Both the position numbers and the translations under genes were made by a program. Below are positions 5,858-64,000 of a stretch of DNA of 64,000 nucleotides, piece by piece. The number at the start of each line of letters is the position of its first letter. The first letter of the stretch is position 1. Source of the DNA: Actinomycetota bacterium. Lineage in GTDB: Bacteria; Actinomycetota; Geothermincolia; Fen-727; Anoxymicrobiaceae. The DNA lies in assembly GCA_018831265.1 (NCBI GenBank), contig JAHJCO010000052.1:22597-86596 (forward strand), written 5' to 3'. A model generated the notes under the pieces. It was not told the origin of the DNA. It did not search any database and was given only the letters and a program-made list of their open reading frames with translations.

Positions 5858-8056
5858 GTGAAGAGGTCGCTCGTCTCGCTGTCGATCGCAACCCTGCTCC
5901 TGTTCTCTACCGTTCCCCTGCTCCCTCAGGCCGCCGTGGCGGCGGACCTGCAGGGCTGGGTGCAACAGGTGTCGGGCGTGACCGAGAACCTGGTGGACGT
6001 ACAGGCGCTCGACGCCGATACGGCCTGGGCGGTCGGCTGGAGCGACACCATCCTGAAGACCACCAACGGGGGGGCGGACTGGAACCCCCAGGTGTCCGGG
6101 ACGACGAGCAAGGACCTGCAGGATATCTCCGCGGTGAACGGCAACACGGCCTGGGCGGTCGGTCACGGCGGGACGATCATCGTGACCGTCAACGGTGGAA
6201 CAACCTGGACACCGCCCCTGACGGCTCCTCCGATCGCCACCACCAACCTGGCCGGAGTGCACGCCTTCAGCGCGCTCTCGGTATGGGCGGTCGGCGGGTC
6301 CGGCACGGTGATAAGGACCAACAACGGGGGGCTGACCTGGGACGACCAGGCCACTCCCACCACGCGGGACCTGTTCGCGATATCGGCGGCGGACACGCTC
6401 AACGCCTGGGCTGTGGGAAACGAAGGAGCGCTCATCCACACCACCAACGGCGGCGCCACCTGGGTCGCACAGACCGCCACCTCGCAGAAGCTCCGGGGCG
6501 TCCACGCCCTCAGCCCCACTGTGGCATGGATCTGCGGGTTCAACGGCGAGATCTACAAGACGTATGACGCCGGAGCCACCTGGAACCGTCAGCCGACGCC
6601 GACCGACAACATACTCTATGACATCTGGGCCGTGGACAACGACGTGGCCTGGTCCGTGGGCTACGACGACTTCGTCCTCGACGAGGGGATAACCCTGAAG
6701 ACGACCGCGGACGGGGCCGACTGGCACTTCCAGTACGGCTCGACGCAGAACCTGCTCGGGGTGAGCGCGGTGAACTCGCAGATCGCCTGGGCGGTCGGCA
6801 TGAACGGCGAGATACTGAAGACGACCAACGGGGGCGAGTGGTACAGGACCTGGTATCTCGCCGAGGGAGCGACCCTGGGCGGCTTCGAGACCTGGGTGCT
6901 GGTGCAAAACCCGGGCACGAACCCGGCGGACGTCAACATCACCTACATGACGGACCAGGGCGCGGTACAGGGCCCTGTGTTCCAGCTCGCGCCGGAGAGC
7001 CGCACGACCGTGAACGTCGCGGAAACGGTACAGACCTTCGACGTGTCCACCTACGTATCGAGCAATGCCCCGGTGGTGGCGGAGCGCGCCATGTACTGGT
7101 TCAACCGCAAGGCCGGCCACGAGTCCATTGGAACGGTGGCTCCGGCCACGACCTGGTACCTGGCGGAGGGAGCCACCCAGGGAGGCTTCGAGACCTGGGT
7201 GCTCGTGCAGAACCCGGGTGCGGCCACCGCTAATGTGAACCTCACCTACATGACCGAGAATGGGGCGGTGCCCGGACCCCCGCTGCAGATACCGGCTCAG
7301 AGCCGGCAGTCGGTGCCGGTGAACGCGACCGTGACCACCTACAAGGTCTCGACGCTCGTGTCGAGCGACCAGCCGGTCATCGCCGAGCGGGCGATGTACT
7401 GGAACAACAGGTTCGGCGGCCACGACTCCATAGGCGTGAACGGGCCGGACAACGACTGGTACCTGGCCGAGGGGGCCACCCTGGGAGGATTCGAGACCTG
7501 GGTGCTTGTGCAGAACCCGGGGGCTGCGGCCACCAACGTAACCTTGAACTTCATGACGGAGAACGGTCCCGTGACCGGCCCGACCTTCTCGCTTGGGGCC
7601 ATGAGCAGGGAGTCCATCGACATCTCGCAGTGGGTCCAGACCTTCAAGGTCTCCACTCGCGTGACGAGTACACCCGGTCCTGTCATCGCCGAGAGGGCGA
7701 TGTACTGGAACGGCCGTATCGAGGGGCACGACTCGATCGGTGTCACCATGCCCTCGGACACCTGGTACCTGGCCGAGGGGGCCACGCTGGGGGGCTTCGA
7801 GACCTGGATCCTGGTACAGAACCCCGGTCCCATCGCGGTCGACGTCGACCTCACCTACATGACGGACCAGGGTGAGGTGACAGGGCCGCATTTCTCGCTC
7901 GAGGCGAACAGCAGGGAATCCATCGACGTCGGGGCCGACCTGCAGACCTACAACGTCTCGACCAGGGTCACAGCGAGCGCGCCGGTGATAGCCGAGCGGG
8001 CGATGTACTGGAACAACCGCATCGGCGGCCACGACTCGATCGGCCTGGGGCTCTAG
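5858..8056 (+). CDS. secreted protein: signal peptide + BNR/Ycf48-like beta-propeller repeats (TAWAVG..GTIxKTTNGGxTW, about 7 blades) + four copies of the ~105-aa WYLAEG...AERAMYW module
   Basis: Signal peptide MKRSLVSLSIATLLLFSTVPLLPQAAVAA. Modules start at WYRTWYLAEGATLGG, TWYLAEGATQGG, DWYLAEGATLGG and TWYLAEGATLGG. Each ends AERAMYWxNRxGGHDSIG. Confidence 0.8.
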   Translation: MKRSLVSLSIATLLLFSTVPLLPQAAVAADLQGWVQQVSGVTENLVDVQALDADTAWAVGWSDTILKTTNGGADWNPQVSGTTSKDLQDISAVNGNTAWAVGHGGTIIVTVNGGTTWTPPLTAPPIATTNLAGVHAFSALSVWAVGGSGTVIRTNNGGLTWDDQATPTTRDLFAISAADTLNAWAVGNEGALIHTTNGGATWVAQTATSQKLRGVHALSPTVAWICGFNGEIYKTYDAGATWNRQPTPTDNILYDIWAVDNDVAWSVGYDDFVLDEGITLKTTADGADWHFQYGSTQNLLGVSAVNSQIAWAVGMNGEILKTTNGGEWYRTWYLAEGATLGGFETWVLVQNPGTNPADVNITYMTDQGAVQGPVFQLAPESRTTVNVAETVQTFDVSTYVSSNAPVVAERAMYWFNRKAGHESIGTVAPATTWYLAEGATQGGFETWVLVQNPGAATANVNLTYMTENGAVPGPPLQIPAQSRQSVPVNATVTTYKVSTLVSSDQPVIAERAMYWNNRFGGHDSIGVNGPDNDWYLAEGATLGGFETWVLVQNPGAAATNVTLNFMTENGPVTGPTFSLGAMSRESIDISQWVQTFKVSTRVTSTPGPVIAERAMYWNGRIEGHDSIGVTMPSDTWYLAEGATLGGFETWILVQNPGPIAVDVDLTYMTDQGEVTGPHFSLEANSRESIDVGADLQTYNVSTRVTASAPVIAERAMYWNNRIGGHDSIGLGL

Positions 8057-8059
8057 TAC

Positions 8060-8158
8060 GGTGCCAGGCACATTAGCCCGAAAGTATTAGCCTCGATGAA
8101 CTCTTTCCTGTCGGGGAGAGAGCAGGACTAATAATCCAGAGGTAATGTGCCTGGCACC
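8060..8158. mobile_element. MITE-like element: 16-bp perfect terminal inverted repeats GGTGCCAGGCACATTA / TAATGTGCCTGGCACC flanking about 67 bp
   Basis: Lies between two convergent genes. The arm core GGTGCCAGGCAC recurs in other palindromes of the window. Confidence 0.45.
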
Positions 8159-8171
8159 GGGTATTAGTCGG

Positions 8172-8957
8172 CTACCTGCCCTTGAAGTCGGGGGGACGCT
8201 TCTCCATGAAGGCGGTCACGCCCTCGACAACGTCCGCGGTCGCCACCGCGATGCCCTGGCAGCTACCCTCGCGGTCCAGGCAGCCCGCCAGGTCGGACTC
8301 GAAGGACTTGTTGAGCATCCCCTTCATCATGCCGATGGCCCGTGTCGGCCCCGCCGCAAGCCGGTCGGCGATCTCCATGGCCTTGTTCATCAGCTCCTCC
8401 TGTGGGACGACCGCATTGACCAGGCCCATCTCCAGGGCCTTCCGCGCCGGGACGTCATCCCCGAAGAACATGAGCTCCTTGGCCTTCGCCAGGCCGATAA
8501 GCCTGGGCAGGAAGTAGGTCCCACCCAGGTCGGCGATCAGCCCGCGGCGCACGAACACCTGTATGAACTTCGCCTTCTCGGAGGCGACCAGCAGGTCACA
8601 GGAGAAGGCGAGGTTGCAGCCCGCTCCGGCGGCGACCCCGTTGATGGCGCCGATTATCGGCTTCTCCAGCACCCACATGGCGTGACAGAGCCGAGAGTAG
8701 GCGAAGCAGGTTATCCGCATGCCCGGCGCGGTGAAGGCGTCCTCCCGGCCGCCTCCGCCCGACAGGTCGGCCCCGGTGCAGAAGCCGTCCCCCGCGCCGG
8801 TGACCACCACGGCGCGCACCTCATCGTCGAACTGCAACTCGTGCATCACCGCGCCCATCTCCTGGACCAGGTCCATCGTGAAGGCGTTCTTCTTCTCGGG
8901 GCGGTTCAGCGTGAGGACCTCGACCGCGCCTTTCCTCTCCCGCAGCAGCTCGTCCAT
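8172..8957 (-). CDS. enoyl-CoA hydratase/isomerase (crotonase family)
   Basis: Start at internal ATG (MDELLRERKGAVEVLTLNRPEKKNAF) preceded by GAAAGGAAGG RBS. C-terminal crotonase end ...FMEKRPPDFKGR. Confidence 0.8.
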   Translation of the reverse strand: MDELLRERKGAVEVLTLNRPEKKNAFTMDLVQEMGAVMHELQFDDEVRAVVVTGAGDGFCTGADLSGGGGREDAFTAPGMRITCFAYSRLCHAMWVLEKPIIGAINGVAAGAGCNLAFSCDLLVASEKAKFIQVFVRRGLIADLGGTYFLPRLIGLAKAKELMFFGDDVPARKALEMGLVNAVVPQEELMNKAMEIADRLAAGPTRAIGMMKGMLNKSFESDLAGCLDREGSCQGIAVATADVVEGVTAFMEKRPPDFKGR

Positions 8958-10429: not shown

Positions 10430-12064
10430 CTACCGGGCCCGGCCGGTCCCGCCGCGATCGCCGGCCAGCTCCATCCGGCCACTCGCGACCTCGGCCTGCG
10501 CGGGCAGCTCGAGACGCTCGCGGTCCATCTGCTCCTGCTTGCGGTGCGCCTTCTCGGCCTTGGACGCCTGCCGCTCGGCCTTGTAGCGGTGTTTGAGCTC
10601 TGAGATGTAGTAGCGGTTCATACTCTTCCACCTGGTGATTGTGTGGTGCGCGTAGATGCTTATCGCCATGTCCTTCCAGCGGAACGACATCCCCAGCTTC
10701 CAGCACTGGAAGACGGAGTAGAACCTTCGCATCGCCTTCAGGCCTATCTCCTTCTGGAGCTTGAACGGTGACATCTTGGCGGGCTCATAGACCACGTGGT
10801 GCCCGCTGAACTTGGACCAGTCGTCCACGAAGATGCGCCCCTCGCTGCACAGCTCGTCGTAGGTCTCGGTCCCCGGAAGCGGGGTCAGCACCAGGAACTG
10901 TACGGTATCTATCCCCGACTTGCGCGCGAAGCGGACCGTGTCCCTTATGGTCTGCTTGTCGTCCTCGTCCGAGCCGAGCACGAACATGCCGTGCACCCTG
11001 ATCTTGTACTGGTGCAGGACCTCGACCGCGCGCCTGATGTCATCCACGGTCTGTGACTTGCGGAACGCCTCCAGGGTCGCCGGGTTGATCGACTCGACGC
11101 CCAGGAAGAGGTTCTTGCAGTTGGTGTCGCGCATCAGCTCCATGAGCTCGAGGTCCTCGACCACCTCGACCCGCGCCTGGGCCATCCATCGCTGGGTCAG
11201 CCCCTTCTCCTTCATCTTGCGGAGGAGCTCCTTGGTGTGCGACGGCGAGGCGGTGAAGTTGTCGTCGTAGAAGAAGACCGTGCGGTTGGGCTGCCTCTCG
11301 CAGAGCACCTCCAGCTCCGCTATCACGTCATCGGTGTCGCGGAACCGGTACCTGCGCCCGAACATGCTTGTCACCGAGCAGAACTTGCAGTCGTACGGGC
11401 AGCCGCGCGAGGTCTGTAGTGGGATGACCTTGAATCTCTCGAATCCCTCGATGAGGGTGAGGTCCGGCCACGGCAGCGCCGTGAGGTCCTTTACCCTCTC
11501 GCGGTCGGGGTTGTGCCGGAACCCGTCGCCGTCGTGGTAGGAGAGGCCCTCGATGTCCGAGAGCTCGCCCTCACCGGCCGAGAGTTGCTCTATCAGCTCG
11601 ACGAACGTCTCTTCACCCTCCCCGCGGACTACGAAATCGGCCCCCGCTGCGAGAGCCTCGTCCGCGAGGAACGACACGTGCGGACCACCCAGGACCACCG
11701 GGATATCACTCGAGGCCTTGATGCGCTCGATCAGGTCGTAGGCGACCGGCGCCGTCGGAGTTACGGTCGATATACCGACCAGGTCGGCCGTCGCCACCTC
11801 GCCCCAGTCGATCTTCGCCACCTCCTGGACGTAGATCTTGACCTCGATGCCCTTATCAACGAGAACAGCTCCCAGCAGGGGCAGCCCCAGTCTCGGGAGC
11901 TTGAACTTCGAGAAGACGTGGAACCCCGGGGCCCTGGGTTCGATAAGGACGACCTTGCGGATTCCGTCATACCCTGGCTGTGCATGCAGGCTGCACAAGT
12001 CCCGCGTATCGTGGCGCGGCCCGATATGCCCGCCTGATCGACCTGGCTCTTCAGAGGTATTCAT
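10430..12064 (-). CDS. B12-binding-domain radical SAM protein
   Basis: N-terminal cobalamin-binding-like domain (VVLIEPRAP...VVLGGPH) followed by a radical SAM core with the CPYDCKFC (CxxxCxxC) motif. The start overlaps the vapC stop by a few codons. Confidence 0.75.
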   Translation of the reverse strand: MNTSEEPGRSGGHIGPRHDTRDLCSLHAQPGYDGIRKVVLIEPRAPGFHVFSKFKLPRLGLPLLGAVLVDKGIEVKIYVQEVAKIDWGEVATADLVGISTVTPTAPVAYDLIERIKASSDIPVVLGGPHVSFLADEALAAGADFVVRGEGEETFVELIEQLSAGEGELSDIEGLSYHDGDGFRHNPDRERVKDLTALPWPDLTLIEGFERFKVIPLQTSRGCPYDCKFCSVTSMFGRRYRFRDTDDVIAELEVLCERQPNRTVFFYDDNFTASPSHTKELLRKMKEKGLTQRWMAQARVEVVEDLELMELMRDTNCKNLFLGVESINPATLEAFRKSQTVDDIRRAVEVLHQYKIRVHGMFVLGSDEDDKQTIRDTVRFARKSGIDTVQFLVLTPLPGTETYDELCSEGRIFVDDWSKFSGHHVVYEPAKMSPFKLQKEIGLKAMRRFYSVFQCWKLGMSFRWKDMAISIYAHHTITRWKSMNRYYISELKHRYKAERQASKAEKAHRKQEQMDRERLELPAQAEVASGRMELAGDRGGTGRAR

Positions 12065-12503
12065 CCAGCACCATCACCTTCATCCCATTGAAACCGGTCA
12101 GCTCGGGGTCGTCAGTCACGAACGCGCTGGCGCCTGCCTCCGCAGCACTCGCCAGCAGGATGCTGGATGCCATCTCCAGCTTGCCCATCGAGCGAATCCC
12201 GGCGGCGCGGGCGGCCACTGCCGGATCCATCGCCACCAGCTCGAGGTTCGGCATCTCGTGGAACAGCACCCGGTACAGGTCGGCGAGGCTCTCCAGCCCC
12301 AGCTCCAGGGGCCTGGCCATCACCTCCGCCAGGGTCACCGTGGAGACGGTGCCCCTCACGTGCCCGTCCTGGACCTGCCCCAGCACCACCGAGGTCAGCT
12401 CGGAGAGCTCATCGCCCCCGAAGTGGTGGATGAAGACGCCGGTGTCCAGCCCCACCACCTTGTGGTCGCCCAGGTCCTTCTTGAGTCTCTTCACTTTGTC
12501 CAC
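12051..12503 (-). CDS. vapC: PIN-domain ribonuclease toxin (VapC-like)
   Basis: 150 aa with a PIN acidic-residue pattern (VVGLDTGVFI.., ..TDDPEL). Overlaps the upstream antitoxin gene by about 4 codons. Confidence 0.65.
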   Translation of the reverse strand: MDKVKRLKKDLGDHKVVGLDTGVFIHHFGGDELSELTSVVLGQVQDGHVRGTVSTVTLAEVMARPLELGLESLADLYRVLFHEMPNLELVAMDPAVAARAAGIRSMGKLEMASSILLASAAEAGASAFVTDDPELTGFNGMKVMVLDEYL

Positions 12504-12727
12504 GGTTCCCTCACGCTCCTGAGGTACGCCCTGGGGTCGATCCCCTCCCAGGCCTCGGCACCCAGGCCCCGCATGAACGAGGCGAAGTCCTCGGGCCGGG
12601 CCAGCATGACCACGACGCCGTCCCGGTAGTCGAAGATCACCTTGTCGCCCGCCTTGATGCCCAGGGCATCTCGGGCTTGCCGGGGGATCACCACCTGGTA
12701 TTTGCTGCTGACCGTCGCCGTGTCCAT
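12491..12727 (-). CDS. vapB: AbrB/MazE/SpoVT-family antitoxin (VapB-like)
   Basis: Internal start MDTATVSSKYQVVIPRQARDALGIKAGDKV, a swapped-hairpin antitoxin signature. The track ORF begins at an upstream TTG; the ATG is preferred. Confidence 0.6.
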   Translation of the reverse strand: MDTATVSSKYQVVIPRQARDALGIKAGDKVIFDYRDGVVVMLARPEDFASFMRGLGAEAWEGIDPRAYLRSVREPWTK

Positions 12728-12832
12728 CCGTCTCTCCGTTCGTGTTGCTGCCATGCGTAGGTGGACATTAGCATCTGTAATACGACAGGTCAATAGGTAA
12801 AGGGATTATCACTATCGCTTTGCGCTGATCTC

Positions 12833-13102
12833 TCGAGCGGCCACGATGTGACTAACCAGGGGGTCAGGCACAATTCAAGTCACACAGGCCAGGTCGTACT
12901 GACGTTCATCTCGGGCCGCACCCCGCTGCCCTGCTCTTGCTCGACCTACATACAGGGTCACGATGTGACTGGTTGAGTAGCCTGAAATTGAATGCTTTTC
13001 TCGAGCAACCACCAAGTGACTAGGCTTGGGGTCAGGCACAATTCAAGTCACACCATACAGGTTGTCCAGCATTGAAGCTGACATTGAATTGAGCCTGACC
13101 CC
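12833..13102. mobile_element. MITE-like non-coding element, copy A (about 270 bp). Imperfect terminal inverted repeats GGGGTCAGGCACAATTCAAGT / ATTGAATTGAGCCTGACCCC, with internal repeats of GGGGTCAGGCACAATTCAAGTCACAC and GTGACT-containing units
   Basis: About 90% identical, in inverted orientation, to 44091-44356. The 3' half is repeated at 50997-51100. Fragments occur at 18351-18397. Confidence 0.65.
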
Positions 13103-13212
13103 ACTTTATTCACATACCCTCTTCACACTTTAGACATATCTCAATGCTAGACTGTGCTCCATGAAATACTATTAATCCAATAGACTTTGTAGTCTGAGGA
13201 GCCTGGAGGGGC

Positions 13213-13614
13213 GTGATGAAGAAGACAGTCGTAGTGTTGATAGCGCTGGCGTTGCTGGGTGGCGCGGTAGCCGTCGTCGCGGGCTGCGGGGGTTCCGGGC
13301 TCAGGGCCGGCGCGGAGATCCCCGCGGACACGGCTGTGGTCGGTATCGCTGAGATCAACGAGAAGCCCACCGCCTACGCGGGCAAGTCGGTCGTGACCTC
13401 CGGTTATTACGGGATCGGGCTCTGCTCCGATTGCTTTCTCATCAAGGACGGCGTCGCGACCCTCAGGGTGGAAGGCTCGCAGACGGTGCCGGTGCCGTCG
13501 AAGTCGTACCTGAACAAGCCCCTCAGGGTGTACGGCACGGTCGATGTTACCGAGGGGGCCGGGGGGACCGAGCAGGCTATCACGCTGAAGGCCGAAGGCC
13601 TCGAGTTCCAGTAG
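13213..13614 (+). CDS. small lipoprotein (signal peptide with lipobox VAGC) preceding a MacB-type ABC transporter
   Basis: MMKKTVVVLIALALLGGAVAVVAGCGG...; 133 aa. ATG at 13216 or GTG at 13213. Confidence 0.6.
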   Translation: MMKKTVVVLIALALLGGAVAVVAGCGGSGLRAGAEIPADTAVVGIAEINEKPTAYAGKSVVTSGYYGIGLCSDCFLIKDGVATLRVEGSQTVPVPSKSYLNKPLRVYGTVDVTEGAGGTEQAITLKAEGLEFQ

Positions 13615-13624
13615 TGATCGTGCC

Positions 13625-14779
13625 ATGAGACTCCACACGCTCGCTCTGAAGAACCTCAGGCGGCACAGGGTGCGAAGCATCCTGACCGTCGCCGGTATCG
13701 CCATCTCGGCCATAACGCTGTTCTCCATACTCTCGTTCAACTCCGGGTACGACCGGGCGCTCAAGGAGGAGATATCGGGCTCGGGTATCCACATCTACGT
13801 CTCGCGGGAAGGCTGCCCGCTCGAGGCCGCCTCGCTCATCATCCACGGAGGCGAGATACCCGAGTACCTCGACGAGGGGCTGCTCCCCCAGGTTCAGTCC
13901 ATCAGCGGGGTCAGGGCGGCCGGCGGGATGCTGATAGCCACCGCGATAACCGGCGGGATGGCCGACCTCTTCTACGGCATCACCCCCGAGGTGCGCTCGC
14001 TCAAGCCGAACTGGCGCCTGAAGGGTCAGTGGTTCCAGGACGGAGGCTCGGCGGTCCTCGGGGCCAAGGTCGCCGCCAAGATGAAGAAAGGGGTCGGCGA
14101 CACCGTCGAGGTCCCAAGCGTGGGCAGGAGCTTCAAGGTGACCGGCGTGCTGGAGCCAACCAACGGAGAGGACGACGGCTTCTACTACCTGCCGCTCGCC
14201 ACGGCCCAGGAGCTCTTCGGGAAGCCCGCCAAGCTCACCGCGGTGGGAATCCAGCTCGACGACGTGACCACCCTCGCGCAGGTGAGGCGTGACATCGAGA
14301 AGCTGCCCGGGGCGTACGTGGTCCCGGCCGAGGATATGAGCAACCGGGTGCTGGAGATAGTGGGCGGGACCAAGTCCATCATGTTCGCGATCATGGTCAT
14401 CGTACTGGTGGTGGCCGGCCTGGGCGTGTTCAACATCGTTCTCATGGCGACGTTCGAGCGCAGGGAGGAGTTCGGCTACCTTCGCTGCGTGGGAGCCGGC
14501 AGGGGTTCCATATTCAGGATGATAGTCATAGAGACCCTGGCCCTGAGCCTGCTCGGGTTCGCCGCGGGCCTGGGGGTTGGCTGGGCGGCTTCCTCCGGCA
14601 TCGACCGCTGGATAAGGCACTTCGTGGCCTACGTCCCCTCCGGCCGCCTGATACGGCCCGACCTGTGGTCGGTTCTCATAACCGCGGGGGTCGTCCTGGC
14701 GCTGGGACTGCTGGCGGGGCTCTACCCCGGCTACCGCGCATCGAGCGTACCTCCGATGGAGGCGATACGAAGTGAGTGA
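13625..14779 (+). CDS. ABC transporter permease, FtsX/MacB family
   Basis: N-terminal TM (LKNLRRHRVRSILTVAGIAI), a periplasmic domain and a C-terminal FtsX 3-TM bundle. Confidence 0.8.
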   Translation: MRLHTLALKNLRRHRVRSILTVAGIAISAITLFSILSFNSGYDRALKEEISGSGIHIYVSREGCPLEAASLIIHGGEIPEYLDEGLLPQVQSISGVRAAGGMLIATAITGGMADLFYGITPEVRSLKPNWRLKGQWFQDGGSAVLGAKVAAKMKKGVGDTVEVPSVGRSFKVTGVLEPTNGEDDGFYYLPLATAQELFGKPAKLTAVGIQLDDVTTLAQVRRDIEKLPGAYVVPAEDMSNRVLEIVGGTKSIMFAIMVIVLVVAGLGVFNIVLMATFERREEFGYLRCVGAGRGSIFRMIVIETLALSLLGFAAGLGVGWAASSGIDRWIRHFVAYVPSGRLIRPDLWSVLITAGVVLALGLLAGLYPGYRASSVPPMEAIRSE

Positions 14780-15443
14780 CACCGCGTTCGAACTCATCGA
14801 CGTCCAGAAGGTGTACCACCGCGGCTCCGAGGAGGTGCGGGCGGTGGACGGCCTGTCGCTATCCGTGCCGGCCGGCGAGTATCTCTCGATAACAGGGCCC
14901 TCGGGATCCGGCAAGTCCACCCTGCTGAACCTGATAGGGTGCGTGGACACCCCGACCGCCGGCCTGGTCAGGGTCGATGGGCTCGAGGTGGCGGGCATGA
15001 AGGAGAACGAGCTGAGGCGCATCCGCTCGAAGCGGATCGGGTTCGTCTTCCAGCAGTTCTTCCTGCTCCCGACGCTGACCGCGCTGGAGAACGTGATGGT
15101 GCCGGGGGTCTTCTACGAAGGCCCCAACGGTTCGCTGCGGGCTCGGGCGGAGGGCCTGCTGCAGACGGTCGGGCTCGGGAAGCGTGTCGCGCACAGGCCC
15201 TCCGAGCTGTCGGGGGGCGAGATGCAGCGGGTGGCGATCGCCAGGTCGCTCGTGAACCGACCTTCGATACTGCTGGCCGACGAGCCCACGGGCAACCTGG
15301 ACATAAGGAACTCGGGCGAGATAGTAGAGCTGCTGGAGGGTTTCAACGCCGAGGGCCTGACCCTGATCGTGGTCACCCACAACCCTGAGCTGGCCGCCCG
15401 CGCCGGCCGTGGCATCTCCCTGGCCGACGGCCGAATAGCGTGA
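14772..15443 (+). CDS. ABC transporter ATP-binding protein (MacB/LolD-like)
   Basis: Walker A GPSGSGKST, signature LSGGEMQRVAIARSL, Walker B ILLADEPTGNLD. Confidence 0.85.
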   Translation: MSDTAFELIDVQKVYHRGSEEVRAVDGLSLSVPAGEYLSITGPSGSGKSTLLNLIGCVDTPTAGLVRVDGLEVAGMKENELRRIRSKRIGFVFQQFFLLPTLTALENVMVPGVFYEGPNGSLRARAEGLLQTVGLGKRVAHRPSELSGGEMQRVAIARSLVNRPSILLADEPTGNLDIRNSGEIVELLEGFNAEGLTLIVVTHNPELAARAGRGISLADGRIA

Positions 15444-18424: not shown

Positions 18425-18427
18425 AAT

Positions 18428-24261: not shown

Positions 24262-24264
24262 ACC

Positions 24265-24990
24265 TTGAGCTCGATCACCCTGGAGGACCTCCACAAGGTG
24301 TACGGGGAGGGCGGCGGCGAGGAGGTGCGCGCAGTGGACGGCATCGACCTCTCCGTGGACAGGGGCGAGTTCGTGGCCATAATCGGGCCGTCGGGCTCCG
24401 GGAAGTCGACCCTCCTGAACCTCATCGGCGGGCTGGACGTGCCCACCTCCGGGCGCGTGGAGGTGGACGGCATGGACACCGGGGGGCTCTCTGACAGGGA
24501 GCTGACCCGGCTGCGCCGCGAGAAGATCGGGTTCGTGTTCCAGGAGTTCAACCTGCTGCCCGTCTTGAATGCGCTGGAGAACGTACAGCTTCCCCTGCGT
24601 TACCTGAAGGTGAACCCGAAGGAGCGCAGGGAACGAGCGATGGAGGCGCTGGAGAAGGTGGACCTGGTGAACCGCGCCGGGAACAGGCCGTCGCAGCTCT
24701 CGGGGGGCGAGAGGCAGCGGGTGGCCATCGCGAGGGCGCTTGTGACGACGCCCGCCCTGGTGCTCGCCGACGAGCCTACCGGCGAGCTCGACACCGCCAA
24801 CACCTGCAGGATAATCGAGTACATGAGGGTTCTGAACAGGGAGCTCGAGCAGACCTTCGCCATCGTCACCCACGACCCCATGGTGGCCCGCTACGCAGGG
24901 CGCGTCATCACGCTCAGGGACGGCCGGGTCGCCTCCGACGAGCCGGGCGAGGATGCCCCGCTCACCTGCGACGACCTCAAGCCGGTCTAG
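24265..24990 (+). CDS. ABC transporter ATP-binding protein (MacB/LolD-like)
   Basis: AAGGAGG RBS then TTG. Walker A GPSGSGKST; signature LSGGERQRVAIARAL. Confidence 0.85.
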   Translation: MSSITLEDLHKVYGEGGGEEVRAVDGIDLSVDRGEFVAIIGPSGSGKSTLLNLIGGLDVPTSGRVEVDGMDTGGLSDRELTRLRREKIGFVFQEFNLLPVLNALENVQLPLRYLKVNPKERRERAMEALEKVDLVNRAGNRPSQLSGGERQRVAIARALVTTPALVLADEPTGELDTANTCRIIEYMRVLNRELEQTFAIVTHDPMVARYAGRVITLRDGRVASDEPGEDAPLTCDDLKPV

Positions 24991-25014
24991 TCGGGCTCCG
25001 CACCCGGGAGTGGT

Positions 25015-28306: not shown

Positions 28307-28505
28307 GGGATCGGCGGGCGCAACGGGGTCCGCTGCCAGCGCCGCAGGGACGAACGGGGAAGCCAGGCAGAGAAGCCCGGCCGCTACCGCGATGGCGATT
28401 GCTCTTCTGATGAGAACCTCCTTCTCCGACTCCTTTGCTGTTTATATCGGACTAACGCGTCGTTACTAAAGTGTTATAATCCGCGCACGGGAAGACAGGG
28501 GGACG

Positions 28506-44084: not shown

Positions 44085-44090
44085 CAACTG

Positions 44091-44356: not shown

Positions 44357-44494
44357 CAAGTACGGAAGCCCCCGCTTTTTACCCCGTTTTTACAGGGGCG
44401 CAATCCCTTTTTCACTCAAATGCGTGTAAATATAGGCGTACACTGTCGTATAGATATGCGGCAGACGTTCGTCGGACGGCACGGGGAGGGAGCC

Positions 44495-54945: not shown

Positions 54946-55353
54946 CTAATCGGTGTAGCCTCCAATCGTATTGGCGGCCGCCTGCCTGCCGTTCCAGTAC
55001 ATGGCGCGCTCCACCATGATGTCCTCGCCGCTCGTGCAGGTGACTTTTACTGCGCCCCTTCCGCTCGCGAGGTCGTTCATCAGGAACGTCGCGCGGCTGT
55101 CGGGGTCCAGCGTATAGATGTGTGACGAGTTCCCGACGCCTCCCTCCATGAGGTAGTCGATCCTGACGTCCACCGGAACCCCGTTGGGGTTCTGCACCAG
55201 GGTGTAGGTCTCGCATCCGTCCGTCGTCTGGCCGTCGGGCAGGAAGAAGACGTTGTGGGTCGCGCTGAACCCTATCGAGTCGTGGCATATCTCCCCGGTG
55301 GGCGAAGGCAGGTACATGGCGCGCTCCGCGATTATCGGGAGCGTTCCCTCCAC
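54946..55353 (-). pseudogene. gene fragment: terminal module only (FFLPDGQTTDGCETYTLVQNPN ... ERAMYWNGRQAAANTIGGYTD) of the modular secreted-protein family; no signal peptide or head
   Basis: It begins mid-module (..IIAERAMY) and lies directly downstream of an unrelated gene on the same strand. Confidence 0.5.
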
Positions 55354-55394
55354 GATGGACAGGTCCGGCCCTGCCGGCCCGCGAGTAGCTCTGC

Positions 55395-55763
55395 TCAGGC
55401 TATCGGCTGGACGCCAAGCTGACCCAGCAGCGTATTGACCTCCTTGCGCAACTTGTTGCGCGGTATGAAGCCCTTCTTCCCCGCTTCGGATTCGATGCGG
55501 GCCTCGTCGGGCAGCATGCCCAGGGACATGACCCTGTTAATCATCGGGAAACGTACCCACGCCTCCATCCGGTATGCGTTGCCTGTCCGTGCGACGGCGA
55601 GCATCATCGGAGGGACAAGGATGTTCTCCCCCTTCTGGTAAACCCGCCACGTTCCGTCCTGGGTCTTCAGCAGGTACTTGTTTTCCCCGGCCCACCGCTC
55701 GATCGCAGCCGACACGTCCGCGTCGGACTGAAACTCGACGACCGTCCTGCCTTTGATGCTCAT
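55395..55763 (-). CDS. hypothetical protein
   Basis: Start MSIKGRTVVEFQ preceded by GGAGGAGG. Confidence 0.45.
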   Translation of the reverse strand: MSIKGRTVVEFQSDADVSAAIERWAGENKYLLKTQDGTWRVYQKGENILVPPMMLAVARTGNAYRMEAWVRFPMINRVMSLGMLPDEARIESEAGKKGFIPRNKLRKEVNTLLGQLGVQPIA

Positions 55764-55907: not shown

Positions 55908-57521
55908 CTAGACCGGCTGTCCTCCCTTGACCTGTATCTTCCTGGGGTATTTCTCGAACGTCTTCACGTGCGCGGCCGTCAGCGCCGCGAACAGCGGCAT
56001 GTAGACGAGCTTGCGGATCGTGAAGCTATGCTCCTCCTTTGGATCCAGGAACAGGTTGAAGACCTTGCCGTAGGTGAGGGCTACGTCGTGCCCCGAGAAC
56101 CCTCCGGGTGTCACCGTGTCCCGGATGTCCCGCTCCGTCGCGTGGTTGAACGCCTTCCAGGGACCGATACGCGCGCACGATTGCCGGTCCAGCAACCACC
56201 CGAACACCGCCGCGCGGTTGGACATCCACGCCGGGTCCGCGCCCCAGTGTGTGCCGTCTGGCGCGGGTTCGGCCAGCAGGAAGGCCCTCTGGTCCACCCC
56301 GTCGATGTACCTGTCCTCGGGCAGGTCCTCGACCCCGGCCAGCTCGCAGAGAGTGGGCAGCACGTCACAGAAGTCGAACAGGCCGTCGGACACGCGCCCG
56401 GGCTCTACCATGCCCTTCCAGTAGAAAACGCCCGGCACCCTGATGCCGCCGTCCCAGGTGGTCCCTTTCGAGCCACGGAACGGCGTGTAGGAGCTGTCGG
56501 GCCACGACTCCATCTCCGGGCCGTTGTCCGATGTGAGGAAGATGAGAGTGTTCTCCAACTGGCCGGTCTCCTCGAGCGCCGCGAAGAGACGCCCGAAGAT
56601 GTCGTCGCACTCGACCAGCACGTCGTGGAAGGGGTACTTGCACCGGGACTTGCCCTTGAACCTGTCGGGGGGGTAGTTATCGAAGTGGCATCCCCGGGTG
56701 CCGTGGTAGAGGAACCACGGCTCCTGTGAGTCTTTCATCGACTTGATGAAATCGACGGAGTAGTCGGCCCAGTTCTCGTCCAGGTCCTTGACGGTATCAA
56801 GGTCTATCTCCTCCTGCTCTATCCCGGGGATGTCGAACTGGCCAGCCTTCGCCTTGATCACGTGTTTGTTGAACTTCGCGTTCAGTATCGCGTTGAAGAT
56901 AAGCGGGTCGTTGACGATCTCCGGGTAGAAGTAGTTGTCGCGCCACTCCGTGTACATGTCCGAGACTCCGTAGAAGCCGTAGAACTCGTCGAAGCCCTTG
57001 TTCTGGGGCACCGACTCCGCGTTCTCCCCGCAGTGCCACTTGCCGACCGCGCGCGTGACGTAACCGGCCTTCTTGAGCAGCTCCGCGAGCGTCACCTCGT
57101 CCTGCAGGCCTCCCGGTTGGCCGTACATCGGCGGGGTCAGGATGCCGTGGCGGATGGGCAGGCGCCCCGTCATCAGGGTCGCCCTCGACGGGGAGCAGCT
57201 CGGCTGCGAGTAGCAGGACGTGAGCTTCAGGCCGTCCTCCGCCAGCCTATCGAAGTTCGGGGTTGGAGCCCCCCTCAGGTGCCCTCCCCCGTAGCACCCG
57301 AAGTCACCCCAGCCCACGTCGTCCAGTACGAATACGAGGAAGTTGGGTTTCCTCCCGGTCTTCTTCTCGAGCTCAGAGAGTTTCTTCTCCGCGGCTTCCT
57401 GCCATCCGGGGTGCAGGAGCCGGGGCTCGCGGTTCTCCGCGTAGATGTCGACCGCCCCGCCCAGGACACGTTCACCTCCGTCCGGCGGGATCGCACCGCT
57501 GTCGATCCAGTGGTCGGCCAT
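55908..57521 (-). CDS. Cys-type sulfatase (arylsulfatase family, alkaline phosphatase superfamily)
   Basis: AAAGGAGAAGG RBS then MADHWIDSG.... Sulfatase signature with formylglycine site CSPSRATLMTGR; PNFLVFVLDDVGWGDFG. No signal peptide detected. Confidence 0.8.
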   Translation of the reverse strand: MADHWIDSGAIPPDGGERVLGGAVDIYAENREPRLLHPGWQEAAEKKLSELEKKTGRKPNFLVFVLDDVGWGDFGCYGGGHLRGAPTPNFDRLAEDGLKLTSCYSQPSCSPSRATLMTGRLPIRHGILTPPMYGQPGGLQDEVTLAELLKKAGYVTRAVGKWHCGENAESVPQNKGFDEFYGFYGVSDMYTEWRDNYFYPEIVNDPLIFNAILNAKFNKHVIKAKAGQFDIPGIEQEEIDLDTVKDLDENWADYSVDFIKSMKDSQEPWFLYHGTRGCHFDNYPPDRFKGKSRCKYPFHDVLVECDDIFGRLFAALEETGQLENTLIFLTSDNGPEMESWPDSSYTPFRGSKGTTWDGGIRVPGVFYWKGMVEPGRVSDGLFDFCDVLPTLCELAGVEDLPEDRYIDGVDQRAFLLAEPAPDGTHWGADPAWMSNRAAVFGWLLDRQSCARIGPWKAFNHATERDIRDTVTPGGFSGHDVALTYGKVFNLFLDPKEEHSFTIRKLVYMPLFAALTAAHVKTFEKYPRKIQVKGGQPV

Positions 57522-58851: not shown

Positions 58852-59214
58852 CTACCCCGCCGGCTCCTTGGCCCCCTCCGTTATGGCGTTGGCGATGATG
58901 AGGGCCTGGTTGCGGTCCTCCATGCGGTTGGCGTCCTCGAGGGACGAGCCGTTGAGCGCGGCGTTGAAGGCGTCCTTTGTCATGCGCAGGCCGAACTTGT
59001 TCTTGGAGCACATCACCGCCGCCATCGCCCTGGCCGCGGGAAGCAGGTCCTCGCGGGTGTGCACGTGGTTGGCAAGCCCCAAGCGGTAGGCCTCGTCGGC
59101 GGGGACCCTCTCTCCGGTGAGGCGCACCTCGGCGGCCTTGCCCCAGCCCACAGTTTGGGCAGGAAGAAGCTGGAGGACAGGTCGGCCCCGCCGGTCACGA
59201 ACACCCTGGATCAA
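58852..59214 (-). pseudogene. crotonase (enoyl-CoA hydratase) C-terminal fragment
   Basis: ...VRLTGERVPADEAYRLGLANHV...AMAAVMCS..FGLRMTKDAFNA... matches only the last third of a crotonase. Confidence 0.5.
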
Positions 59215-62200
59215 TCGGAATACGCACCTATAGTGTCCGTTCCGAAACCACGATCACCCCAGTACATGGAGCGCTCGACCACGATGGGTCTGGCACAGTT
59301 GACCGCTACGGATGCCCTGCTGCTCTTCATCCAAAGGCTCATGTCACAGGTCTTACGGCTGTGAGCGGGCAGAGTTTCCGAGAAGGTCACCCCGCCCTGG
59401 CCGGTCGCGGTCAGGTAGGACACGGTGACACTTACCGGCGTGCTATTGGGGTTGGCTACCAGGGTGTAGGTCTCCCTTCCCTCGGAACTCTGGCCGTCGG
59501 GCAGGTACCAGGAGGCGTGCGGTGCCGGGCTCCCTATGGAGTCGTGGCAGGCCTCCTTTTCCCCGTTGTTCCAGTACATGGCCCTCTCGGCGAGTATCGG
59601 TACCGTCCCGTGTACGTGGATGGAGCAATCCACGCCCGCCATGCCCGGTACATCGTTCACCTTGATTGATTTCCTGGAGTTCGCCGGCAGCGTTAACGGG
59701 TCCTGGTTGACCGGACCTCCAGGGGTCATGTAGGTAACGTTCACCTGCGCATCGGTGGGGTTCGGGTTCTGCATCAGCACCCAGGTCGTGAAGCCCCAGG
59801 CGGTGGTACCTTCCGCAAGGTAGTAATCTTCGGCCGGCGCGGTCGAACCCACCGAGTCGTGTCCCTCCATCCTGTCATACCGGTACATGGAACGCTCGGG
59901 GATGACAGGCAGGTCCGAGGTCACTGTGGTGGAGGCGCTCTGCTCGCCGATGTCGGCGGCCATGCTGAACGTATGCCGCGACTTCGCCGGCACGACCTTG
60001 TCGAACGAGTTCGCGCCGCCGCCTTCCACCATGTACGTCAGCTTTACGTTGGCGGGGGCGTCGTTAGGGTTCTGGATGAGGGTCCAGGTCTCAAAACCGA
60101 ACGCCGAGCAGCCCTCGGGCAGGTACCAGGTATCGGCTGCGTAGTTCACTCCTACCGAGTTGTGGGCCTCTTCCGCCCAGCTCATGGTCCTGTCAACAGC
60201 GATGGTCCTGCCCTCGAGGCATTCAACCTTCGTGGAGAAGTCGGAAGAGCCTACTGCGTCGCCCGGGTTGACGGTGAGCTGCGACTGCGGGTTAACCCTG
60301 AACGTGCCGCCGTCCACCGCACCGCCGGGTGTCATGTAGGTGAACTTCACGCTAACGGCGCAGTCGTTGGAGTTCACGGCGGTCACATAGGCGCTGAAAC
60401 CCCAGGCGGTGGAGCCTTCGGGCAGGTACCAGGTGGGCGTGAGGACTTCGAACGCTTTCCCGTTGGAGGTGCCGTGATCTGTGGTGACGGTGACCGTGCA
60501 ACCGCCGGATACCCCCGTTGGCACCTTGCACGTCACTTCCCCTTCGGTCCATTCACCGTATTCCACGGCCTTCGTCCCGCCGAAGCTGACGTATGAACCT
60601 CCTCGCGCGTCCCCGAAGCCGCTGCCTTTCACGGTAACGGTCGTTCCGGCGGGCCCACTCTGAGGTGACATGGAGTCGATGACGGGTGGCGCGACCGATA
60701 TCCTCCACACCTCGCATCCCGAATCCCAGTTTGACGTGCCGACGAAGAGGCTTTCTCCGTTGGCGATCATGGACCGTGCGTTCCTGTTCCCGGGGCTCCC
60801 GAACCCATAAGTGGCCGCGCGGGTCCACTCGTGCCCGTCGTAGCAGAACACGCCGCACCCCTTGTCGTCGTTCTGCGTCCCGACGTAGAGCCGCGAGTCG
60901 AATGCCGCCATCGACCAGGCTACGTCGTTTTCCGCGTCTCCGAAGCCTCCCTCCGAGATCTTCGACCACGTGGTGCCGTCGTAGCTCCACACCTGGCAGC
61001 CATCATTGTTCTGCGCGCCCGCGAAGAGGGCGTTCCCCATTACGGCCATGGCATAGATCCCGGCGTTGTCCGGGTCCCCGAAGTGGTCAACGTTCATCTG
61101 GGTCCACGATGTACCGCCGTCGTACCGGTAGACCCGCCCTTCGGGAGTACTCGCGTAGAGGCGCCCGCGGAACTCCACGAGTTGAGTGACGCAACTGCTG
61201 TCATCATGGATCGGTCCCTCCGCCACGCTGTTCCAGGTCGACCCGTCGTAGCTCCAGACCTGCGCTCCCGTGCCATTCCACGTACCGACATGGAGACGGT
61301 CATCGAACACGCTCATGCATACGGGTTCCGCATTGCCGATGTCTCCGAAACCATCCTGGTTCACCTGCGCCCATGACGAGCCGTTGTATCGCCAGATCTG
61401 GCAACCGCCATAGTCCTTCTCCGCTCCGACATACAGGTTGCCCTGGTACTCGCAGGCCGAGGCAATGATGCTGACGAGGTTGCTGCCGAAGCCCGGTTCA
61501 GCGATACGCGACCACGATTGCCCGCTCGCCGACTCCATGAATACCTGCCCCCTGCTGGCTACTGCGGCCGTTCCCACGGCAAGCCGCCCATCGAAGAAGG
61601 CCATTCCGAAGGCGTCGGTGTCATTGTGTGCCGATAATCCGAGCGGGGCCGCAAGCGGCCAGTCGGTGCCACCCGCGTATCTCCTGACCTCACCGCTTGA
61701 CCCTGTATCGGCGCAGTGTGTCGAGCAGTAGAGTTCGGGGCCGTAGTTGAGGAGACTGCAGACGACGACGGTCTGCCTGCGGCCTGGTCCCTGCGGATCG
61801 TTCTGTTCGTCGAAGGAGGGCTCCGAGACGGGCTTGATCTCGTCCATGGAAGGGTCATAATTCCAGATCTCGCAACCTACATCTTCGTTGTAGGTGCCCA
61901 CGACAAGGCAGTCCTGGTAAGAGGTCATCGACCACGCGATGGTGTTGCTGGGATCGCCGAACCCCTGGCCTGCCGCGCCGACATTGTTCCATGAGTCTCC
62001 GTCATAGCAGTAGACCTTGCATCCTCCGTCAATCTCACCCCTGGCCGTTCCCGCGTACAGCTCGCCCGCGACAGTCGCCAACGATGTCACGCTGCCGTTC
62101 GTGGGGTCATCGAAGCCTCCCGACGCCGACCTCGTCCAGCTGGAACCGTCGTAGCGCCAGACGTCCGCCCCGGCAACGGGGTTATCCGTCCCTGCATATA

Positions 62201-62894
62201 GCGCGCCGTCGTATTCGGCCATGCTCAAGACAGTATGGGTAGCAATGGTCCATGGGTTGAGGCCGGCCGAACCGACGCAGGTCCATACCGACCCGTCGTA
62301 GCGCCACATCTGCGCACCGTCCGGGTCATTCCCCACCCCCGCGTAGAGGGCATCGTTGAAGACGAACATCGACATGACGTTCACATTGTCGTCGTCCCCG
62401 AATCCGCTGGCGTTGACCTGAGTCCAGGACGTCCCGCCGTTGTACCGGAGGACCTGGCAACCATCCGTCCCGTTGAGGGTGCCTGCATAGAGGCGCGACC
62501 TAAACGAAGACATCGAGTAGACGATCCAGTTCTCCTGATCTCCCAGGCCGTTCGAGCCGACCATCTGCCAGCTAGACCCGTCATAGCTCCACACTGAACC
62601 GCCCGCGTTCCCTGCGGCGTCCCCCGTACCCACATAGAGGTTAGAGCCGTTGATCGCCATGCATTGCACGGCCTTGTAGCAGGGCACATAGCTCCCGTCG
62701 ATCCCTCCCGTGGCAATCCTTACCCAGTCGTCCGCGAAGGCGGGCTGGTTCCCACAGAGACCGGACGATAGGAGCAGGCAAATGGCCAGAATGGCCATGA
62801 GAAAGGAGCATACACGCACCATAGCAGGCCTCCTTTGCCTTCTGCACCCTTCAGTACTAGGAAATCGGCAACTTGTCGAGAACGCTGAAGTCAA
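59211..62894 (-). CDS. giant secreted modular protein (1227 aa): signal peptide + about 13 copies of a 50-aa DGSSW/LYAGT propeller-like repeat + IPT/TIG domain + 4-module WYLAEG...AERAMYW block ending GTDTIGAYSD
   Basis: Signal MVRVCSFLMAILAICLLLSSGLCG. Repeats ...G.FGD..N..V.SM..F...LYAGT.N...G..VW.YDG..W.... Modules: PTWYLPEGSTAWGFSAYVTAVNSN, DTWYLPEGCSAFGFETWTLIQNPN, EDYYLAEGTTAWGFTTWVLMQNPN, ASWYLPDGQSSEGRETYTLVANPN. Confidence 0.8.
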   Translation of the reverse strand: MTSAFSTSCRFPSTEGCRRQRRPAMVRVCSFLMAILAICLLLSSGLCGNQPAFADDWVRIATGGIDGSYVPCYKAVQCMAINGSNLYVGTGDAAGNAGGSVWSYDGSSWQMVGSNGLGDQENWIVYSMSSFRSRLYAGTLNGTDGCQVLRYNGGTSWTQVNASGFGDDDNVNVMSMFVFNDALYAGVGNDPDGAQMWRYDGSVWTCVGSAGLNPWTIATHTVLSMAEYDGALYAGTDNPVAGADVWRYDGSSWTRSASGGFDDPTNGSVTSLATVAGELYAGTARGEIDGGCKVYCYDGDSWNNVGAAGQGFGDPSNTIAWSMTSYQDCLVVGTYNEDVGCEIWNYDPSMDEIKPVSEPSFDEQNDPQGPGRRQTVVVCSLLNYGPELYCSTHCADTGSSGEVRRYAGGTDWPLAAPLGLSAHNDTDAFGMAFFDGRLAVGTAAVASRGQVFMESASGQSWSRIAEPGFGSNLVSIIASACEYQGNLYVGAEKDYGGCQIWRYNGSSWAQVNQDGFGDIGNAEPVCMSVFDDRLHVGTWNGTGAQVWSYDGSTWNSVAEGPIHDDSSCVTQLVEFRGRLYASTPEGRVYRYDGGTSWTQMNVDHFGDPDNAGIYAMAVMGNALFAGAQNNDGCQVWSYDGTTWSKISEGGFGDAENDVAWSMAAFDSRLYVGTQNDDKGCGVFCYDGHEWTRAATYGFGSPGNRNARSMIANGESLFVGTSNWDSGCEVWRISVAPPVIDSMSPQSGPAGTTVTVKGSGFGDARGGSYVSFGGTKAVEYGEWTEGEVTCKVPTGVSGGCTVTVTTDHGTSNGKAFEVLTPTWYLPEGSTAWGFSAYVTAVNSNDCAVSVKFTYMTPGGAVDGGTFRVNPQSQLTVNPGDAVGSSDFSTKVECLEGRTIAVDRTMSWAEEAHNSVGVNYAADTWYLPEGCSAFGFETWTLIQNPNDAPANVKLTYMVEGGGANSFDKVVPAKSRHTFSMAADIGEQSASTTVTSDLPVIPERSMYRYDRMEGHDSVGSTAPAEDYYLAEGTTAWGFTTWVLMQNPNPTDAQVNVTYMTPGGPVNQDPLTLPANSRKSIKVNDVPGMAGVDCSIHVHGTVPILAERAMYWNNGEKEACHDSIGSPAPHASWYLPDGQSSEGRETYTLVANPNSTPVSVTVSYLTATGQGGVTFSETLPAHSRKTCDMSLWMKSSRASVAVNCARPIVVERSMYWGDRGFGTDTIGAYSD

Positions 62895-62906
62895 AGGCTG
62901 TCCCTG

Positions 62907-63398
62907 TCACTCGCAGAGCCATTCCCCCTGGAGTTTTTCCAGGGAACCGTCTTCCTTCATACGGTCAAGGACCTGGTCGAGCCGGTCAAGTAATGGCGCG
63001 TTGCCTTTCTTGACGCCGAAGCCCCACTCTGTGGGTTCCCCGACCTCGCCGATGCTGGTATTCTCGCCTGTTCCCCTGTTCCGCCAGGCGTACTCCACCG
63101 ACGGGCTCACGATCACATCGACTGTACCGTCTGCAAGCGCCGCATACATCTCGTCGTCGTGCGGGAAAACCCTGACATCACGAATCCCAGGAATCGCCTG
63201 CGCCAGTTTCAAGGCTCGCGAACTCTCGACGGCACCCACCAGTTTGCCTTCGAGGTCTTCCTGGCCTTTAAGCGGCGACTGCCGGGGTACTACCAGCTTG
63301 AACGCTGTGCTGGAGGACCGACACCACCCTGGGCACATGCCTTGAGGAGTGGATTCAGCTTGAAGAACGTTCGTTGATTGTTGGAAAATGGCAACCAT
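62907..63398 (-). pseudogene. fragment of a family-3 solute-binding protein (C-terminal lobe only)
   Basis: ...KLVGAVESSRALKLAQAIPGIRDVRVFPHDDEMYAALADGTVDVIVSPSVEYAW...GFGVKKGNAPLLDRLDQVL... without an N-terminal lobe or signal peptide. Confidence 0.4.
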
Positions 63399-63843
63399 TC
63401 ACAACTACAGCATTGTTAACGTCCGCTTTAGATGCCGGTCACCAATTCTCGTGAAAACCAAGGATTTCCTGCGCGTACCCGACGACGCAGATCGGCGACA
63501 TGATGAACTGATAAAAGAGAAACCGATTGCTCCGTTTGCTCAGCTCCGGCGGCGTAGCGCCGGCATCCTGCCGGCATAATCGTAGGTCGATGCCGCCTGG
63601 AAGGCGGCGCTACGAGCTCACTGCCGCCGGAGCTGCGCAAAGTGGTTAATTGTAAAGAGAATGTACACCAGCCCGCCGAAACGGTTCCGCCTGACTTCAA
63701 GCCCAGGATGTCGAAGACCTTCTTCTCCGCAATCCGGACAAACTGTTATATCGTGCTCAGGGGATATGTATCGGTTCTGTATCTGTGCCCCATAGGATTC
63801 TATTGAATTCCACGGGGCACAGCGGTCTCAGACCGTGTTGTTA

Positions 63844-64000
63844 CTAGTACATCCAGAACCCTATCGAATCGTGCGCCGCCTGACGGTACACGCCTGTCAC
63901 GGGCATCCAGTACATCGCCCTCTCGGCAATGATGGGCTGGTCGGACGTCACGGTGGTGGAAACGCTGAACGCATTCGCGACCGCGGGCGTGCTGGCGATG
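63844..64000 (-). CDS. 3' end of another member of the modular secreted-protein family (5' part lies beyond the window)
   Basis: The minus-strand translation ends ...DQPIIAERAMYWMPVTGVYRQAAHDSIGFWMY* with a TAG at about 63844. This is a module end motif and is not in the ORF track because it runs off the edge. Confidence 0.5.
   Translation of the reverse strand, partial: IASTPAVANAFSVSTTVTSDQPIIAERAMYWMPVTGVYRQAAHDSIGFWMY

Follow-up and report, generated by a model that had tools for sequence, protein, structure and literature searches.

The ASRAH superfamily, which was defined by De Souza, Iyer and Aravind in 2009, consists of CBM4-like β-sandwich domains that are predicted to bind sugars and that are recognized by a Trp that follows a polar residue where strand 1 begins and by a near-invariant Asn ending strand 2 (PMC2739507). 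Its prototypes, TM1070 (PDB 1NC7) and the Anabaena sensory rhodopsin transducer (PDB 2II7, PF07100 ASRT), are single-domain, cytoplasmic proteins that form non-covalent homotetramers, and the TM1070 tetramer has a pocket partly walled by the dimer interface (PMC2739507). The secreted versions comprise tetrads, which in Chloroflexi are fused to a peptidoglycan amidase, and dyads, found in a lipoprotein of actinobacteria that is linked to a glycosyltransferase and WhiB (PMC2739507). Here we describe a family of secreted proteins that end in a block of four tandem ASRAH-type modules, encoded in a stretch of 64,000 nucleotides from an Actinomycetota bacterium of the class Geothermincolia (assembly GCA_018831265.1, contig JAHJCO010000052.1, positions 22,597 to 86,596; hereafter the window). 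Geothermincolia are uncultured, anaerobic, deep-branching actinobacteria, and the papers that we found on them do not mention surface proteins. On balance, we regard it as probable, with only a modest degree of confidence, that the four-module block is a non-covalent, cell-wall-binding anchor that keeps secreted proteins at the surface. The domain name and the sugar-binding prediction were already available; the massive, lineage-specific use of the block as a common tail and its differentiated form, here called type A, are new. The fold and family of the module, the module number, the conservation by position, the variety of heads, the signal peptides and the peptidoglycan-enzyme fusions of close relatives are observed; compact packing, glycan binding and the cell wall as ligand are inferred.

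A profile built from 21 modules and searched against all six reading frames of the whole window (GC content ~64%) assigned exactly four modules to every one of the five full genes (independent E-values of 4e-31 to 9e-43), with further module sequence in one truncated remnant and one 3′ partial gene, and no copies elsewhere in the window. The modules are 99–111 amino acids (aa) long and stand in tandem at the C-terminal end of all five full genes, every one of which encodes a Sec-type signal peptide; as read from their translations, the five proteins contain no lipobox, transmembrane segment or sortase motif. An earlier note on this DNA, prepared from the letters alone, had placed the five full genes with their four tandem modules, a fragment at 54946–55353 and a 3′ partial at 63844–64000, all of which were recovered by the open reading frames (ORFs) and the profile scan, although its tally of at least eight paralogs came down to seven loci. 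The blocks are of two types, type A in genes 25910, 40749, 51105 and 59211 and type B in gene 5858, and the loci are as follows.

5858 to 8056, + strand: gene 5858 (732 aa), with a signal peptide, a Ycf48/BNR-like β-propeller and the type B block, whose four modules are near-identical (from translation, Pfam and profile); modules 1–4 at 6848–7144, 7148–7450, 7451–7753 and 7760–8047 (+).
25910 to 28411, − strand: gene 25910, with a signal peptide, an SGNH-fold hydrolase head, a (PE)n linker, an Ig-like domain and a type A block; modules 1–4 at 27160–26846, 26839–26543, 26536–26228 and 26221–25919 (−).
40779 to 44084, + strand: gene 40749 (also listed as 40779; 1101 aa), with a signal peptide, YAQR repeats, two Ig-like/TIG domains and a type A block; modules 1–4 at 42774–43088, 43098–43424, 43428–43748 and 43752–44078 (+).
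51105 to 52760, − strand: gene 51105 (551 aa), a minimal "headless" member with a signal peptide, one TIG domain and a type A block; modules 1–4 at 52352–52035, 52031–51735, 51728–51420 and 51419–51111 (−).
54946 to 55536, − strand: truncated remnant, with the end of a module 3 and a complete type A module 4; a 135-aa gene is called at 54946–55353.
59211 to 62822, − strand: gene 59211 (1203 aa from the called ATG), with a signal peptide, DGSSW propeller-type repeats, a TIG domain and a type A block; modules 1–4 at 60434–60141, 60131–59835, 59828–59517 and 59513–59217 (−).
63844 to 64000, − strand: 3′ partial, the last 51 codons of a member that leaves the window; module tail matched at 63856–63975.

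The module is an ASRAH-type (TM1070/ASRT) eight-stranded β-sandwich. The window modules show both hallmarks of the superfamily, the Trp with which strand 1 opens and the Asn that closes strand 2, the latter being invariant in 21/21 modules. The Pfam family PF18986 (DUF5719; gathering cut-off, 26.2 bits) matches gene 5858 at 63.1 bits (E 3e-17), gene 25910 at 54.6, gene 59211 at 53.2 and gene 51105 at 48.2, whereas gene 40749, at 25.7, narrowly misses the cut-off and the fragment reaches 16.1; single modules searched against Pfam at E-values up to 10 gave weak matches to DUF5719 and DUF7356 only. PF07100 ASRT has no match among the window modules even at this permissive threshold, yet several close family members score 35–54 bits against its cut-off of 25. 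The module profile aligns weakly with TM1070 itself (E 0.021), with WFFPDG...N of the latter opposite W-Y-L-[AP]-[ED]-G...Q-N. If the register of TM1070 is carried over, the pocket side of strand 2 may present E/T, W/Y, L and Q, which would fit a sugar site. The module thus belongs to a named family, contrary to the opinion of the earlier note, which had recognized no such family and had held that a match to a well-characterized domain would leave only the architecture as novel. The domain does have a name and a published sugar-binding prediction, but its secreted versions are characterized by prediction, and our searches of the literature found no paper on DUF5719/PF18986 and none on ASRAH besides that of 2009.

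The window proteins share with the two prototypes an aromatic residue in the motif W-[FY]-x-[AP]-[ED]-G and the Asn, and probably also an assembly of four units. They differ in carrying four diverged copies in one secreted chain and in having G-F-E-T-[WY]-x-L-[VI]-Q-N in place of the SHEshChhN pocket signature of ASRT. Like the amidase-associated tetrads of Chloroflexi, which constitute family 2 of De Souza et al. (PMC2739507), they are secreted and possess exactly four tandem ASRAH domains, and relatives of the gene 5858 block are joined to Amidase_3, as in family 2, and also to M23, YkuD and M99 enzymes. However, the published description of family 2, with which this comparison was made, covers amidase fusions only, from a few Chloroflexi genomes, whereas in the actinobacterial class studied here the block serves as a common tail for dozens of unrelated heads per genome, and its type A form is derived and differentiated by position. 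The lipoprotein of family 3 is likewise secreted and actinobacterial, with wall glycan binding predicted; its ASRAH dyad is flanked by extensions of its own on both the N- and the C-terminal side, it has a lipobox cysteine, and its gene lies in a conserved WhiB–glycosyltransferase neighborhood (PMC2739507). The window genes, which have four modules and neither a lipobox nor WhiB or glycosyltransferase neighbors, fall outside that family. The Pfam family DUF5719 may itself correspond to family 3, as the profile spans about two modules.

In the type A genes, module n is closest to module n of the other genes (48–70% identity, versus 23–47% at other positions), and this position-by-position likeness indicates that the type A block was duplicated whole. 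The four modules of gene 5858 are instead mutually 57–69% identical, more than any of them is to a module elsewhere, and identity between modules of types A and B is 28–49%. The claim of the earlier note that the block had been copied as a unit stands for the four type A genes; gene 5858 is a different subtype. The blocks are only 65–70% identical at the DNA level, which identifies them as old paralogs; this value, together with the presence of the same proteins on independent contigs, ruled out a recent amplification or an assembly artefact. Within each module polar residues are kept at fixed positions, and each position in the block has its own invariant set. Modules 1 and 2 begin with T/D-W-Y-L-A-E-G, and in most type A modules 3 and 4 Tyr or Phe replaces the Trp, the exceptions being module 4 of gene 59211, which keeps it, and module 3 of gene 25910, which has Cys. 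The starts previously described as universal, DYYLAEGT for module 3 and FYLPDG for module 4, do not hold in gene 5858, gene 25910 (DCYLAEGS, FFLPDG) or gene 59211 (WYLPDG). The type A block ends 1–3 residues before the stop codon in 80/88 cases, and its terminus, IGG[YF]SD, is conserved.

The family extends far beyond the window. In a search space of 1.84 billion protein representatives at 50% identity, the module profile matched 7,762 proteins at E up to 1e-3 and 3,222 at E up to 1e-30, and 384 loci were found among GTDB species representatives; the best 79 of these 384 loci came from 17 Actinomycetota metagenome-assembled genomes (MAGs), with up to 15 loci in one MAG. Exactly four modules were present in 82 ORFs from these 79 loci, the ORFs with fewer being mostly cut by locus ends. 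Four modules were likewise counted in 240/250 relatives and eight in 6/250, and among type B relatives four were counted in 108/112, so that the pooled figures are 348/362 for four and 354/362 for four or eight. Because module number is quantized in this way, a fixed four-module unit is favored over a variable, bead-like stalk. The word "stalk" in the earlier note sits poorly with this constancy and with the polar residues conserved at fixed positions; its general description, that of a large paralogous family of secreted proteins with swapped heads and a shared C-terminal block of four modules, is supported, and the family is very probably a major cell-surface system. The AlphaFold2 structure predicted for the whole 551-aa chain of gene 51105 has a predicted template-modeling score (pTM) of 0.84. 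With a prototype that is itself a tetramer, this high pTM also favors a fixed unit over beads on a string, and both, along with the constancy of four, suggest that the modules may be packed as an intramolecular pseudo-tetramer. Three of the relatives, P0127, P0160 and P0207, comprise nothing but a signal peptide and a pair of four-module blocks (eight modules, ~880–906 aa), and could serve as bivalent cross-linkers or as structural proteins of the wall. One of them, P0207, matches the S-layer family Slr4 at 22.6 bits, below the cut-off of 25.

The kinds of protein to which the block is attached bear on its role. In relatives, type A partners include peptidases (S8, C1, C39), glycoside hydrolases (GH5, GH10, GH39, GH42), lipases, esterases, phosphatases, polysaccharide deacetylase, a caspase-like domain and many propellers. 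The headless architecture of gene 51105 is also conserved across MAGs, where its orthologs are 65–80% identical. The 120 best relatives found with the gene 5858 block include fusions to peptidoglycan-acting enzymes of five kinds, namely Peptidase_M23, Amidase_3, a YkuD L,D-transpeptidase, Peptidase_M99/AstE (a Csd4-like carboxypeptidase) and Beta-lactamase2, as confirmed by hmmscan, and in these fusions the block is often N-terminal to the enzyme. Three relatives of the gene 5858 block at E ~1e-130 to 1e-140 (P0381, P0385 and P0397) carry Amidase_3, although no window gene encodes an amidase. These fusions point to the cell wall as the partner of the block, and its attachment to unrelated secreted heads, the many copies per genome and its position at the protein end (the 80/88 cases above) argue for an anchor-like use.

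The precedent for such a use comes from the SLH triplets of Bacillus anthracis and other bacteria and the CWB2 triplets of the Cwp family of Clostridioides difficile, in which three tandem repeats form a pseudo-symmetric unit that binds a wall polymer. Large paralogous families of surface proteins share these units while their functional heads, wall hydrolases and proteases among them, are exchanged; the ligands and the binding of the units have been shown experimentally. The block described here resembles them in being a fixed number of repeats, found with swapped heads, that would act as one unit. This resemblance is functional only: the folds and sequences are unrelated, there are four repeats rather than three, and the ligand proposed here comes from inference. 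No Pfam models for SLH, CWB2, LysM or choline-binding repeats were found in six window proteins at E up to 0.01, nor was there a cohesin or dockerin match in the window proteins, and the cellulosome-like scaffold that the earlier note had offered as an example finds no counterpart in these signatures.

We propose that the four tandem modules would form one fixed unit, probably an intramolecular copy of the homotetramer of the stand-alone proteins, with predicted sugar-binding pockets on module faces and at module interfaces. After Sec export, this unit would bind a repeating glycan in the wall of the same cell, be it peptidoglycan or a polymer associated with the wall, and the variable head (an esterase, protease, glycosidase or propeller) would thereby be held non-covalently at the surface, usually beyond an Ig-like TIG spacer. 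The block would then be the functional counterpart in Geothermincolia of the SLH or CWB2 triplets. A more ambitious version of this proposal, which we advance tentatively and consider rather less likely than the anchor as such, holds that the type A block reproduces the ASRT/TM1070 homotetramer in covalently fused form, with its four copies diverged, and has become the main surface-display system of the whole class, recognizing a lineage-specific wall polymer and carrying much of the exoproteome, in the role that sortase/LPXTG, SLH or CWB2 plays elsewhere.

Several points weigh against the anchor proposal. The peptidoglycan-enzyme fusions involve type B, not the type A block present in four of the five window genes, and two types with such low mutual identity between their modules (28–49%) could bind different ligands. 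Sugar binding by secreted ASRAH domains is a computational prediction of 2009 (PMC2739507). Glycoside-hydrolase heads fit substrate targeting equally well, the pTM leaves a choice between compact packing and a rigid rod, and no genes for wall-polymer synthesis or secretion adjoin any paralog in the window or in its continuation on the contig (locus L086). In addition, a three-module subfamily exists, represented by the gene at the window end, P0402 and P0469; the two genuine three-module proteins among the type B relatives share a YAQR head.

The modules might instead be carbohydrate-binding modules (CBMs) that fix secreted enzymes to environmental polysaccharides, an arrangement for which the predicted sugar binding, the CBM4-like β-sandwich and the many relatives with GH5, GH10, GH39, GH42, esterase or lipase heads all speak. 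A substrate-specific CBM would be expected to vary with its catalytic head, however, and here a single genome has the same block, 55–70% identical and conserved by position, on proteases, propellers and phosphatases as well as in headless proteins, while the closest type B relatives act on the cell's own peptidoglycan; we consider this substrate-targeting array improbable. We give the same low standing to a self-assembling surface layer or matrix, in which blocks would bind one another to build an S-layer-like lattice or sheath with the heads projecting from it. The ASRT and TM1070 fold is known to oligomerize, copy number per genome is very high, headless members of the gene 51105 type are conserved across MAGs, P0127, P0160 and P0207 consist of two blocks only, and P0207 has the sub-threshold Slr4 match; lattice formation is nevertheless putative, few lattice contacts would be left if the modules satisfy each other's interfaces within one chain, and the peptidoglycan-enzyme fusions point to the wall as partner. 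Such a layer would be compatible with anchoring rather than exclusive of it.

It is very unlikely, in our judgment, that the block is a passive rod of Ig-like beads that serves only to distance the head from the cell. The all-β, tandem construction of the modules, C-terminal to the heads and often behind TIG domains, would suit such a spacer, but spacers normally vary in repeat number, whereas four or eight modules are present in 354/362 relatives and each position keeps its own invariant polar residues. Furthermore, the block can be N-terminal in peptidoglycan enzymes, and with no transmembrane segment, lipobox or sortase motif present there would be nothing else to attach a stalk to the cell. 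A C-terminal sorting signal like the C-terminal domain recognized by the type IX secretion system (T9SS) was rejected, as the block is too large (~420 aa, four folded domains) and is N-terminal in the peptidoglycan enzymes.

If the block is a wall anchor, one recognizable tail on more than 7,700 protein clusters would mark surface-exposed enzymes directly in metagenomes and would distinguish hydrolases that act at the cell surface from free ones. It would also provide the first testable function for secreted ASRAH/DUF5719 domains, which are present as well in a conserved lipoprotein of pathogenic actinobacteria. Should the four-module unit mimic the ASRT tetramer, it would clearly exemplify the conversion of a homo-oligomer into a pseudo-oligomer made of one chain. 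The block could also be usable as a display tag.

The heads in the window are mutually unrelated, as had been noted before. That of gene 5858 is a Ycf48/BNR-like propeller, as previously recognized (Pfam PSII_BNR, E 2e-19); true Ycf48 identity was rejected on an NCBIfam equivalog score of 76.7 against a cut-off of 326. The head of gene 25910, earlier described as a putative hydrolase, has no Pfam or PDB sequence match and was resolved by fold as a divergent SGNH-fold hydrolase. In other phyla this SGNH head stands alone or with fn3, CARDB, PKD, BACON or a T9SS sorting domain, the pattern expected if the tail is an interchangeable localization module. The propeller-type heads of genes 40749 and 59211 are built from YAQR repeats with a period of ~56–59 aa and from DGSSW repeats with a period of ~46–49 aa, respectively, rather than the 47 and 50 aa reported earlier; matches to TIGR04275 (40749) and to DUF6242 and Rax2 (59211) are weak. 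Gene 51105 has no head beyond its TIG domain. A TIG domain had been assigned to four paralogs: it is significant by Pfam in genes 40749 (E 7.5e-6), 59211 (E 1e-15) and 51105, and weak in gene 25910 (E 0.08), where the region shares 30% identity with the first of the two Ig-like domains in gene 40749.

The start of gene 25910 required revision. The gene caller's GTG at 28306 (− strand) gives no signal peptide, and an in-frame start at ATC 28411 is preferred because it restores a canonical one; the gene most probably begins there, five bases after a GAAGGAGG ribosome-binding site, and ATC is likely a non-canonical start codon. The truncated remnant, in which the profile matches ~1.3 modules at 54949–55536, has neither a head nor a signal peptide, and no more module traces lie upstream of it in any frame; its module is closest to module 4 of the other genes (46–54% identity).

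The paralogs are mostly monocistronic and dispersed, and their neighbors are unrelated metabolic, ABC-transporter and toxin–antitoxin genes, an arrangement that ruled out an operon or a secretion/anchoring locus. Set among the surface-protein genes are two large proteins of the phosphodiesterase/sulfatase superfamily (951 and 537 aa; 33581–36436 and 55908–57521, − strand; Pfam Phosphodiest and Sulfatase). A MazE/PIN toxin–antitoxin pair lies beside a MacB/FtsX permease and ABC ATPase pair at both 12051–15443 and 23101–25673; the two arrangements are inverted relative to each other, and their ABC genes are ~68% identical in DNA. An intergenic repeat of ~275 bp occurs in two copies that are 87% identical, one at 44086–44360, right after the stop codon of gene 40749, and the other, inverted, at 12832–13106, upstream of a MazE/PIN pair. 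The repeat carries the hairpin arms GGGGTCAGGCTCAATTCAA / TTGAATTGTGCCTGACCCC, the right one of which recurs once more in direct orientation, and it may be an element like a miniature inverted-repeat transposable element (MITE) or a repetitive extragenic palindromic (REP) sequence. Neither this repeat nor any other part of the window matches Rfam.

Past the window end, locus L086 continues the contig with at least three further loci, giving at least ten in ~73 kb. The gene whose 3′ end closes the window encodes a signal peptide, YAQR repeats and only three modules, which are near-identical to one another and of the 5858-like kind, ends in AHDSIGFWMY*, and has its true start at an internal Met (MKIRRSTQLL). 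At L086 5878–6500 (window-equivalent ~66300–66945), the annotated 1033-aa gene is a chimera of a remnant and the real gene. Its first part, which has no start codon or signal peptide of its own, retains 1.4 modules of a third subtype (ERPMYFDY...GGS) and is separated by ~60 junk codons in the same reading frame from the real start at MKIRRSTQLL. Further along L086 are a 1288-aa, four-module paralog of gene 59211 and then a 1560-aa member. Fragments of an ECH_1 (enoyl-CoA hydratase) gene, 91 and 103 aa long, are found at 58852–59127 (−) in the window and at L086 5076–5387, immediately downstream of gene 59211 and the 1288-aa paralog, respectively, which suggests an old segmental duplication that carried along a piece of the neighboring gene.

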